A stretch of 64,000 bases of DNA from the NCBI RefSeq assembly GCF_016026235.1, contig NZ_CP065613.1; one strand, given 5' to 3'. The notes under the pieces were generated by a model. That model was not told where the DNA came from and did no database searches. It was given only the letters and a program-made list of their open reading frames with translations. Every line of letters starts with the position of its first letter. Position 1 is the stretch's first letter. Source of the DNA: Escherichia coli (GTDB taxonomy: Bacteria; Pseudomonadota; Gammaproteobacteria; Enterobacterales; Enterobacteriaceae). The position numbers were made by a program, and so were the translations under genes. Below, piece after piece: positions 21,799 through 24,290 of this stretch.

Positions 21799-22016
21799 TT
21801 ATGTTGGCGTTTTCTATTCAGTATAGAAGTCGGAGCGGCTGGGCGAGATGCGGAAGTTCTGGAATGTTTCTTTTTTTGATGATGGTGACTGAAGCAAATT
21901 GGCTACATTTTGCAATGTGACCAGTTGCGTCATAGTTGGCTGGCGGCGAAGAATTTTGACGATTGCGGCATGCAGAAAAAAACGGGTTCAGCTTCAGTTG
22001 ATTAAATGAGGAGTGA

Positions 22017-22404
22017 GAAGTCCGAAACAGGATTCACTGTATAAATAAACAGCCATTTTGTTGAGGAAGGGTAAGATAACGGCGGGTGCCTGAAGCTTTC
22101 CGGTTTCAGGTTTACTCTGAGGTCTGGAAAGATGAAGCCCCAGGAGATATTTCTATCAACCCTGGGGCTGCCACTCCAAACCAGACAATTTGGATGGTAG
22201 TTCCTTCTTCGCATGGAGGCAATATAAACATGCTGACGAAATATGCCCTTGTGGCAGTCATAGTGCTGTGTTTGACGGTACTGGGATTTACGCTTCTGGT
22301 CGGAGACTCGCTGTGTGAGTTTACGGTGAAGGAACGTAATATTGAGTTCAGGGCTGTTCTCGCTTACGAACCGAAGAAGTAGCCGTTGTGCGGGGAGTAA
22401 TCCC
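22017..22404 (+). repeat. hok-type locus, tandem copy 1 (5' part and CDS); its 3' end continues at 23699-23796 after the IS
   Basis: Near-identical to 23824-24290 over both coding and non-coding sequence. Confidence 0.75.
22230..22382 (+). CDS. hokE: Hok-family type I toxin (50 aa), copy 1
   Basis: [50 protein letters not shown], with the Hok single-transmembrane signature. Confidence 0.8.
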
Positions 22405-23698
22405 CTGAGGGATCCCCAGAAAATTTAGTAAACCATTATCATATTGGTATACCGTTGCTGTAGAACTTTCAGCCCTGCGTCAAGTGACAGTGTGTTTAGT
22501 ATGAGTGGAGAATGTCGAATCACATTCTCCGCCAGTTTTAATAACGAGATGACTCGCCTGTGCTTCACTGTATTTGCCTGATATTTATGATGTATCCCTT
22601 TGTTTTCCAGGCTGAAACCGCTTAACCACATAATGATACTGGCTAATGTTGCGATCAGACTCAATACCGTGACCCGCCCGGATGAATGACTGGCACCAAA
22701 CCGTAGTCCAAATCCCCAGCGAGGATTTTTTTCATCCCTGAAATTTTGCTCAATTTGCATTCTACGGCTGTATAATTTCATTACCTGTTTTGGCGAGAAC
22801 TCAGTACTGTTTGTGAAAATAAACCATGGTGATTTCCCGGCAGTACGAGCTTTAGCCGTCACCGATGGTCTGGTTGCTCTTTCCTTCGAGCGTTTAAATC
22901 TACGACCTTTAGGCTTACTTTTATAAAGATAAAAATGCCCTTCATGTTGTGCATTTTTATCTCGACCCAGCAGGCCTTCACCTAAATAAATTGCTGTCGT
23001 TGATGCTTTTGTGCCTGAGTCCGACACCTTTTCCCAGCCATTACCAACATTGTAATAATGATTGCCCAGTACCCGGCAAATATAGGTCCAGCCACGGGAG
23101 CGGAGCTGTTGGAACCATCGCCCCTGAAAACCGGCATCTGTAATAACAATGACATCAGTCCCGGGGGAAAAGCACTCAGCAAGCGATTCCAGAAAACGCT
23201 CATGTACATCTGCATTCGCTGTCTGTGATGATGGAACGACACAACTCATCAACGGTAAAGAACGCCCGTCACATGCCAGGCTTGCCCGCAAAAGCTGAAA
23301 ACGAGAGGCATGATAAGCACTCCAGTCAATGAGTATCACAACACGAGACATTCCCCGCGTAATCTTTTGGGTAATTCGCTGAAAAATGGTGGAAACCTCA
23401 TTTTGCAAATGTCGATTCCCCAACAGTCGATCCACCCGCTTTATTTTGTTTTTAACTGATGCCGTACCGGTTAAATGACGCCCGATACTGGTAAGTGTGA
23501 GGGAAGCGCCATTTATTACAGCATTAGTTGCGTCAATCAGTGATTTTTGACGGTAAAGATGCAAAGGGGCCAGTATATTGTTAAGGAAATTTTGGCATAA
23601 TGAACGTGCAGGCATAGTGGTGATCTCCTTGAAATTGTTAGCACAATCAATTAGATCACATCTCACTATGCCTGTCTTGTTTTCTGGGGATTCCTCAG
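22405..23698 (-). mobile_element. IS4-family insertion sequence, probably IS186 (about 1.29 kb)
   Basis: Imperfect terminal inverted repeats CTGAGGGATCCCCAGAAAA and CTGAGGAATCCCCAGAAAA; flanked by a 10-11 bp direct repeat GAGTAATCCC(C); inserted in a GGGG-N6-CCCC target 22 bp after the hok copy 1 stop; one DDE transposase ORF. Confidence 0.8.
22425..23615 (-). CDS. IS4-family DDE transposase
   Basis: 397 aa from the ATG at 23613-23615 (MPARSLCQNF...). Catalytic-region motifs IDWSA, TDAGF and YSRRMQIEQNFRD resemble IS10-type transposases. The 568-aa ORF in the track is read-through into flanking DNA. Confidence 0.85.
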   Translation of the reverse strand: MPARSLCQNFLNNILAPLHLYRQKSLIDATNAVINGASLTLTSIGRHLTGTASVKNKIKRVDRLLGNRHLQNEVSTIFQRITQKITRGMSRVVILIDWSAYHASRFQLLRASLACDGRSLPLMSCVVPSSQTANADVHERFLESLAECFSPGTDVIVITDAGFQGRWFQQLRSRGWTYICRVLGNHYYNVGNGWEKVSDSGTKASTTAIYLGEGLLGRDKNAQHEGHFYLYKSKPKGRRFKRSKERATRPSVTAKARTAGKSPWFIFTNSTEFSPKQVMKLYSRRMQIEQNFRDEKNPRWGFGLRFGASHSSGRVTVLSLIATLASIIMWLSGFSLENKGIHHKYQANTVKHRRVISLLKLAENVIRHSPLILNTLSLDAGLKVLQQRYTNMIMVY

Positions 23699-23758
23699 GA
23701 GTAATCCCCGCATATCCGGTTGTCAGGTCAGGATGGTAAGGCACCTGCTTTACACTTT

Positions 23759-23796
23759 CGCCCGCGGTCAGTGATGGCTGCGGGCGATTTCGTTTT
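23759..23796 (+). terminator. Stem-loop plus T-rich tract: 3' terminator of the hok copy 1 transcript, displaced by the IS
   Basis: GCCCGCGG / CTGCGGGC stem followed by ATTTCGTTTT. Confidence 0.45.
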
Positions 23797-23823
23797 AAGA
23801 GCAATGATGAGTTTTGCCGACAG

Positions 23824-24290
23824 AAGTCCGAAACAGGACTCACTGTATAAATAAACAGCCATTTTGCTAAGGAAGGGTAAGATAACGGCGGGTGCCTGAA
23901 GCTTTCCGGTTTCAGGTTAACTCTGAGGTCTGGAAAGATGAAGCCCCAGGAGATATTTCTATCAATCCTGGGGCTGCCACTCCGAGCCTCAACAACTCGG
24001 ATGGTAGTCCCTTCTTCGCATGGAGGCAATATAAACATGCTGACGAAATATGCCCTTGTGGCAGTCATAGTGCTGTGTTTGACGGTGCTGGGATTTACGC
24101 TTCTGGTCGGAGAGTCGCTGTGTGAGTTCACCGTAAAGGAACGTAATATTGAGTTTAAGGCTGTTCTCGCTTACGAACCGAAGAAGTAGTCGTTGTGCGG
24201 GGAGCAATCCCCGCATATCCGGTTGTCAGGTCAGAGTGGTAAGGCACCTGCTTTACACTTTCGCCCGCAGTCAGTGATGGCTGCGGGCGA
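23824..24290 (+). repeat. hok-type locus, tandem copy 2 (uninterrupted)
   Basis: Aligns to copy 1 and to the displaced copy 1 3' end at 23699-23796, including the terminal hairpin at 24263-24289. Confidence 0.75.
24037..24189 (+). CDS. Hok-family type I toxin (50 aa), copy 2
   Basis: [50 protein letters not shown]; differs from copy 1 at two residues (D/E and R/K). Confidence 0.8.

Follow-up and report, generated by a model that had tools for sequence, protein, structure and literature searches.

The stretch of Escherichia coli DNA analyzed here (64 kb, called the window below) carries an insertion sequence directly behind a hokE gene, in the gene order ybdK, sok/hokE, insertion sequence, second sok/hokE unit, entD, fepA. 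This position raises the question of which element it is, and why it lies in the stem-loop in which IS186 is found in K-12. A preliminary description had likened the position to that of IS186 at hokE in K-12, and a K-12-type genome indeed carries IS186 in this same stem-loop, where GGGGAGCAATCCC is followed by the IS186 end ATAAGCGC on one side and GCGCTTAT by GGGAGCAATCCCC on the other. The question was addressed through the ends, the transposase and the insertion sites of the element.

Extent and identity of the element

The element spans 1294 bp, from CTGAGGGATCCCCAGAAAA at 22405 to TTTTCTGGGGATTCCTCAG at 23698, and these coordinates were re-checked. Its terminal inverted repeats are imperfect, CTGAGGGATCCCCAGAAAA and CTGAGGAATCCCCAGAAAA matching at 18 of 19 positions, and no other part of the 64-kb window has these 19-nt ends, for which chance would give 0.02 matches. 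The features of the element are as follows.

22405..23698, minus strand: complete copy of ISEc60, transposase read on the minus strand (99.9% full-length identity to NCBI-annotated copies)
22405..22423, plus strand: left inverted repeat (IRL) CTGAGGGATCCCCAGAAAA, at the end farther from the transposase start; nt 7-10 read GATC, which the equivalent IS10A end has too
23680..23698, minus strand: right inverted repeat (IRR) CTGAGGAATCCCCAGAAAA, the end proximal to the transposase start, without GATC
22395..22404, no strand: left copy of the target duplication, GAGTAATCCC, 10 bp (direct repeat)
23699..23708, no strand: right copy of the target duplication, GAGTAATCCC, 10 bp (direct repeat)
22425..23615, minus strand: transposase gene, 396 aa plus stop (NF033591, DDE_Tnp_1, translation)
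23609..23674, minus strand: leader hairpin whose 3' arm bears the Shine-Dalgarno sequence (GGAG) and the AUG (inverted repeats, RNA fold)

The boundaries had been proposed from the direct repeat, and both they and the length of 1294 bp were upheld by the sequence. The longest literal flanking repeat in the window is 12 bp (GGAGTAATCCCC) rather than 10 bp, since the outermost bases of the element, C and G, look like target sequence; at most ISEc60 sites, a G precedes the duplication and a C follows it. At two other loci, L169 and L170, the 10-bp repeat is bordered by A and T and is not extendable, and the ends are therefore CTGAGG...CCTCAG and the duplication exactly 10 bp. Of the 10-11 bp that had been given for the flanking repeat, 10 bp applies in the window, and other copies have 10 bp and sometimes 11 bp. 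When the element and one repeat copy were removed, a colinear 94% match to an IS-free strain with tandem hokE (L166) was obtained, and strain A30 has an empty single-copy hokE site, GCGGGGAGTAATCCCCGC; the locus is therefore explained by simple insertion.

The transposase is encoded by a single uninterrupted ORF (23615..22425, minus strand) without a frameshift. It has 397 codons including the stop, so the 397-aa protein of the preliminary description has to be corrected to 396 aa, the stop codon having been counted. The protein scored 360 bits with the NCBIfam model NF033591 (transpos_IS4_2; cut-off 152) and also matched Pfam DDE_Tnp_1; IS10A, at 407 bits, and ISSfl1 match the same NCBIfam model. 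Its identity was 36% to IS10A/ISVsa5, over 93% of the length, and 52% to ISSfl1. The catalytic residues are D97, D160 and E289, and residues Y282, R285, E289 and K296 form the Y-(2)-R-(3)-E-(6)-K signature by which DDE transposases are assigned to the IS4 family. In a three-way alignment with IS10A and ISSfl1, D97/D160/E289 and Y282/R285/K296 are invariant. NCBIfam models and BLASTP thus agree with the earlier placement in the IS4 family apart from IS186, and the catalytic region, which had been called IS10-like, is so by both its identity to IS10A and its invariant catalytic residues.

De Palmenaer et al. 2008 (PMC2266710, Table 1) give the IS10 subgroup of the IS4 family a size of 1200-1350 bp, 5'-CT ends and direct repeats of 9 bp. 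The window element has 1294 bp, both of its ends read CTGAGG, and its transposase clusters with the subgroup by the 36% identity to IS10A and the shared model NF033591. The duplication of 10-11 bp agrees with the one of about one helical turn that characterizes the family, but departs from the 9 bp of the subgroup, and in L169/L170 it is unambiguously 10 bp. Since duplications of 10 bp were also seen for other elements that share these termini, the tabulated 9 bp is probably not strict. The main text of this review does not mention IS186 or ISSfl1.

To name the element, 5426 complete E. coli genomes were searched for full-length copies. The element is rare, with 14 carrier genomes, and identity to the window copy was 98.7-99.9%; several of these carriers are multi-copy, such as the enteroinvasive strain CFSAN029787 with its pINV plasmid. 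NCBI annotates these copies as 'IS4-like element ISEc60 family transposase'. The window transposase is identical to that of a copy in strain FDAARGOS_943 (WP_001111632.1), and at the DNA level a single synonymous substitution, at position 1173, sets the window element apart from most other copies. On this sequence evidence, the window element is ISEc60, a member of the IS10 lineage of the IS4 family, its name resting on the NCBI annotation of the identical protein; the identity that had been left not fully resolved now has this name. In the open literature searched, ISEc60 was found only in a mobile-element-finder table.

Judged by position, the element could be IS186 (IS421), which K-12 carries at hokE, or one of its variants, since IS186 uses the same hok stem-loop, at the same distance from hok and with the same kind of target. 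The proteins are unrelated beyond a 22-residue motif: the best BLASTP segment between IS186 InsL and the ISEc60 transposase covers 10/22 residues (E = 0.008), and InsL matches model NF033592 and not NF033591. The ends also differ (CTGAGG... in ISEc60, (C)ATAAGCGC... in IS186), as do the lengths (1294 bp and 1337 bp). The window element thus has neither the (C)ATAAGCGCTAACTTAAGGGTTG ends and the length of about 1.34 kb of IS186 nor an InsL-type transposase. It does share the targets made of a G run, a spacer and a C run, which is a shared behaviour and not a shared transposase ancestry. We rejected the identity with IS186 on these grounds and regard its probability as negligible.

The regulation of the transposase was compared with that of IS10. 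The leader hairpin (66 nt) folds with -37.9 kcal/mol (z = -5.9 against shuffled sequences). In IS10, fold-back of the leader protects against outside transcription, and by this analogy the hairpin of ISEc60 would likely shield transposase translation from transcripts entering from outside. A consensus promoter scan gave no convincing sigma-70 promoter, inward or outward, near the transposase start; AAGACA-17-TCTAAT, which overlaps a GATC and was read by eye rather than called by the scan, is a possible candidate promoter of the transposase. Its expression might be tied to Dam methylation as in IS10, and the five GATC sites in the element equal the chance expectation. An Rfam search of the window detected no RNA-OUT, the IS10-type antisense RNA, and only two sok/hok leader matches.

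Target choice of ISEc60

Insertion sites were collected from 10 places in two E. coli assemblies and 8 places in complete genomes and plasmids, together with a plasmid copy (L014, about 85% identical) and 28 metagenome contigs, which were found with a 30-nt pattern specific to the left end of ISEc60. The two assemblies, L014, the 28 metagenome contigs, the window and the sister genome L001 gave 35 distinct left flanks. A degenerate relative (L015, 82.5% identical), a decayed pseudogene with only an 8-bp repeat, was excluded from the target statistics. The composition of the 35 left flanks was as follows.

Positions -11, -10, -9 and -8: G in 31, 35, 27 and 30 of 35
Positions -7 to -4: A/T in 69-83%
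Positions -3, -2 and -1: C in 33, 27 and 32 of 35

The information in these flanks totals 11.6 bits, with almost none beyond the G4/C4 core, and the target consensus is G|GGG-WWWW-CCC|C, which the hok hairpin matches as GGAG-TAAT-CCCC. Of the 20 copies for which both flanks were available, 13 have duplicated 10 bp of target and 2 have duplicated 11 bp; the remaining 5 are rearranged. The core GGGGAAAATCCCC is duplicated over 10 bp at hokB and over 11 bp on two plasmids, so the duplication length varies slightly on one and the same sequence. The target described for the window, GGGG-AGTAAT-CCCC with a 10-bp duplication, was confirmed, and the IS186-like target choice that had been proposed from this one site holds across about 40 independent ISEc60 insertion sites.

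ISEc60 occupies hokE (window and L001), hokC next to dnaJ (L013), hokB (L005) and both ibs/sib repeats of the CFSAN029787 chromosome (ibs/ibsA, L167). In the last of these, each ibs/sib repeat has ISEc60 at the same GCGGGGGAAACCCCGC hairpin, which adds a second family of type I toxin loci to those used. These loci could suggest that ISEc60 was brought to the position behind hok not by an intrinsic preference but by chance, or by selection in favour of disabling hok: three hok loci and the ibs loci are occupied, as selection on toxin loci could bring about, and insertions in hairpins after genes are likely tolerated. However, the same G|GGG-N4-CCC|C register recurs at about 30 non-hok sites on chromosomes, plasmids and metagenome contigs, and the cut position is fixed to the nucleotide, which is beyond what selection can achieve. 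Moreover, GGGG-N4-6-CCCC occurs just twice in the 64-kb window, in both cases in a hok 3' stem-loop. We therefore consider chance or selection very improbable as the cause of the position.

It was also considered that the transposase reads DNA structure and not base sequence, in the form of an extruded hairpin or cruciform or of a bendable A/T centre between rigid G/C tracts, in which case the likeness to IS186 would come from a shared structural target. Many sites, with flanks read by eye, appear to be the tops of longer perfect palindromes, such as the hokE, hokB and hokC hairpins and, apparently, the plasmid GGCGGGGAAAATCCCCGCC site, the terminator-like L008 site and the fimbrial palindrome of L169. 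The A/T-rich target centre and the duplication of 10 or 11 bp on the same core sequence would fit such a reading as well. Against it, flank positions outside the G4/C4 core carry almost no information, and the good sites L010, L012 and L171 have no extended palindrome when their flanks are read by eye. Recognition of structure is unlikely on this balance, though a good deal less so than chance or selection.

We thus return to recognition of the base sequence. On this reading, target choice in ISEc60 is strongly directed by a G run, a short A/T-rich spacer and a C run, and such motifs are mostly the tops of GC-rich hairpins at transcript ends. ISEc60 landed 22 nt after hok because the hairpin GCGGGGAGTAATCCCCGC fits this consensus. 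IS10/Tn10 moves by cut-and-paste, and by homology with IS10 the same most likely applies to ISEc60: the transposase would bind two CTGAGGRATCCCC ends, excise the element and join it to the target with a 10-bp stagger, occasionally of 11 bp. After insertion, the left junction regenerates GGGG-N6-CCC+C, which can explain the tandem copies 10 bp apart at hokB and on the pINV plasmid.

These tandem pairs have the same 10-bp spacer, GGTAAATCCC, in the EIEC pINV plasmid pCFSAN029787_01 (about 65.0-66.9 kb, L172) and at the chromosomal hokB of GCA_031665585.1 (L005/L006), where the outer repeat is GGAAAATCCC. The ISEc60 dimer may have moved as a unit or been spread by recombination. In two copies of GCA_031665325.1 (L009 and L011), the left flank is unrelated to the right one and the target is not duplicated, which suggests inversions or deletions by recombination between copies in an IS-rich genome. 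In a CS1-type fimbrial cluster, the sister strains RMDEC332 (L169) and RMDEC364 (L170) carry ISEc60 in opposite orientations at one palindromic intergenic site, with an identical 10-bp duplication. Opposite orientations at one site in sister strains and near-identical copies are signs of recent activity, and the window copy, as far as its sequence indicates, is probably still active.

A scan of reference genomes with the 19-nt terminus did not find ISEc60 but many related elements with other internal sequences, and because of these internal differences the loci were left out of the ISEc60 target consensus. The terminus, CTGAGGRATCCCCASAAAA, is common to many different IS10-lineage elements (L018-L137) in reference genomes of Photorhabdus, Serratia, Enterobacter, Erwinia, Pseudomonas and others. 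Several of them make 10-bp duplications. By eye, groups of these elements seem to have flank signatures of their own: CCCCGCnnnnGCG|, CCCnnnnGGG|, GGGGWCAGnnn| and TGTATACA-like.

Consequences for the hokE units and entD

The insertion lies within the first of two sok/hokE units, and the features that bear on its effect are as follows.

22230..22382, plus strand: hokE copy 1 (hok1), 50 aa, with 22 nt between the end of its stop codon at 22382 and the element
23730..23747, plus strand: fold-back (fbi) sequence that pairs with the hok1 mRNA 5' end (22084-22102), moved 1304 bp away by the insertion
24037..24189, plus strand: hokE copy 2 (hok2), 50 aa, intact; it has a stem-loop of its own (GGGGAGCAATCCCC, 24199-24212), which is free of any insertion

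The distance of 22 bp between hok and the element had been reported correctly. The hok1 5' end (22084-22102) and its partner (23730-23747) form an RNA duplex of -21 kcal/mol, and the equivalent tac/fbi pairing of hok2, at -23.3 kcal/mol, is intact. The tac/fbi fold keeps the full-length hok mRNA inert (PMC9841398). The hok1 terminator (23758-23787) was likewise moved by 1304 bp. With the 5' end cut off from both its fbi partner and its terminator, disruption of hok1 regulation is likely, and we infer from the sequence that the insertion has probably disabled the normal regulation of hok1 and left the hok2 unit intact. For IS186 at hokC/gef, an insertion of this kind has been proposed to break up the fold-back sequence and the transcript to stop within the IS (PMC3562002). 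About 100 nt inside ISEc60, a terminator-like hairpin with a T-rich tail (22505-22532, plus strand) faces read-through from hok1 and is a candidate end of truncated hok1 transcripts.

The preliminary description had also allowed for an influence of the element on the hok copies and on entD. Of these, an effect on hok1 is plausible by the displacement just described. An effect on entD is unlikely: this gene is separated from the element by 612 bp that include hok2, and it is read in the direction of the element, which puts its promoter out of reach. Between the right end of the element and the start of hok2 lie 191 nt. Effects of outward promoters on hok or entD are speculation.

The sok/hokE unit is present in tandem, with unit 1 at 22016-22404 and 23709-23787 and unit 2 at 23822-24290; the period is about 502 bp and the units are 94.7% identical. 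Many strains carry tandem hokE without any IS, and the duplication is therefore independent of the element. The Rfam model 'sok' (RF01794) matches 22084-22238 and 23890-24045 on the plus strand, the same strand as hok, over the hok/mok leader, and this model seems to represent the leader and not the antisense strand.

The sister genome FDAARGOS_943 (L001; NZ_CP065615.1, locus 3616-4909 and flanks), which has 38-39 copies of ISEc60, differs from the window at this locus. It shows no mismatch in 3.6 kb to the left of the element and one in 3 kb to the right, and it lacks window positions 23699-24201 (503 bp), which hold the 3' remnant of hok1 and sok2/hok2. Its right junction falls at the exact ISEc60 cut position in the second hok stem-loop, giving a hybrid repeat with GAGTAATCCC on the left and GAGCAATCCC on the right, and this points to a deletion defined by the IS end. 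Simple homologous recombination was rejected for the 503-bp difference, as it would require a crossover no more than 3 nt from the element end; an IS-promoted adjacent deletion and a second insertion followed by recombination between copies are both likelier. Either route would mean that the second hot spot, in the second hok stem-loop, was used too.

In summary, the annotation of the window is settled as ISEc60 and not IS186, with the first hokE structurally disrupted and the second copy and entD untouched. Jointly, the data are read as an intact and probably active ISEc60 that would move by cut-and-paste into a sequence-directed target of a G run and a C run, and whose insertion cut hok1 from its 3' fold-back; we assign this reading a probability of about 0.9.

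Comparison with known elements

The window copy is 99.9% identical to ISEc60 over 1294 bp, with an identical 396-aa protein and a single synonymous base difference. Catalogued ISEc60 and insertion sequences behind hok genes are both known already. The new point is modest: ISEc60 shares the motif and the hot spots of IS186 though it belongs to the IS10 lineage, and it makes duplications of 10-11 bp and not 9 bp.

ISEc60 resembles IS10/IS10A in its single-ORF DDE/YREK transposase with the same NCBIfam model, its size of about 1.3 kb, its ends (CTGA..ATCCCC, with GATC at nt 7-10 in the transposase-start-distal end only) and its symmetric target. IS10 makes 9-bp duplications at NGCTNAGCN, whereas ISEc60 duplicates 10-11 bp at GGGG-N4-CCCC and has no RNA-OUT match. 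The closest named relative is ISSfl1 from the Shigella flexneri virulence plasmid (52% transposase identity), whose transposase-proximal end is identical to that of ISEc60 in the first 20 nt. However, the one ISSfl1 copy examined has a 9-bp duplication, CCTGAAGGG, with the C run ahead of the G run.

For IS186/IS421, the target was derived from sequence by an exact-protein look-up of InsL. Among the 10 places listed, 8 adjoin a HOK_GEF gene, and every intact site listed reads G|GGG-N4/6-CCC|C; in the hok hairpin, the left edges of the IS186 and ISEc60 duplications are 1-2 nt apart, the exact value following from the choice of the IS186 ends. A 1986 report by Sengstag et al. refers in its title to a variable duplication length of IS186. 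The likeness thus covers the target GGGG-N4-6-CCCC, the hokE stem-loop and hokC, and the occurrence of both orientations, although IS186 is a separate IS4-family lineage with an unrelated transposase, another NCBIfam model, and other ends and length. IS186 occupies the same hairpin in K-12 because its target preference is nearly that of ISEc60. As the transposases are unrelated, this sharing would be better described as convergence than as inheritance, which we infer from the sequences of the two elements. A description of a target shared by two distant IS4-family lineages was not found in the open literature searched.

A wider proposal, to which we give even odds, is that ISEc60 and IS186 reached GGGG-spacer-CCCC independently, that the 3' hairpins of hokB, hokC, hokE and ibs are shared recurrent landing pads where insertion uncouples the toxin mRNA from its 3' regulatory fold, and that the relatives, which have the same termini but quite different flanks, would together serve as a natural set for working out what governs target choice in IS10-type transposases. 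Insertion sequences in hok 3' hairpins are not confined to IS186 and K-12; their presence there follows from a motif that at least two unrelated transposases prefer, which is useful for reading hok/sok and ibs/sib loci in E. coli genomes.
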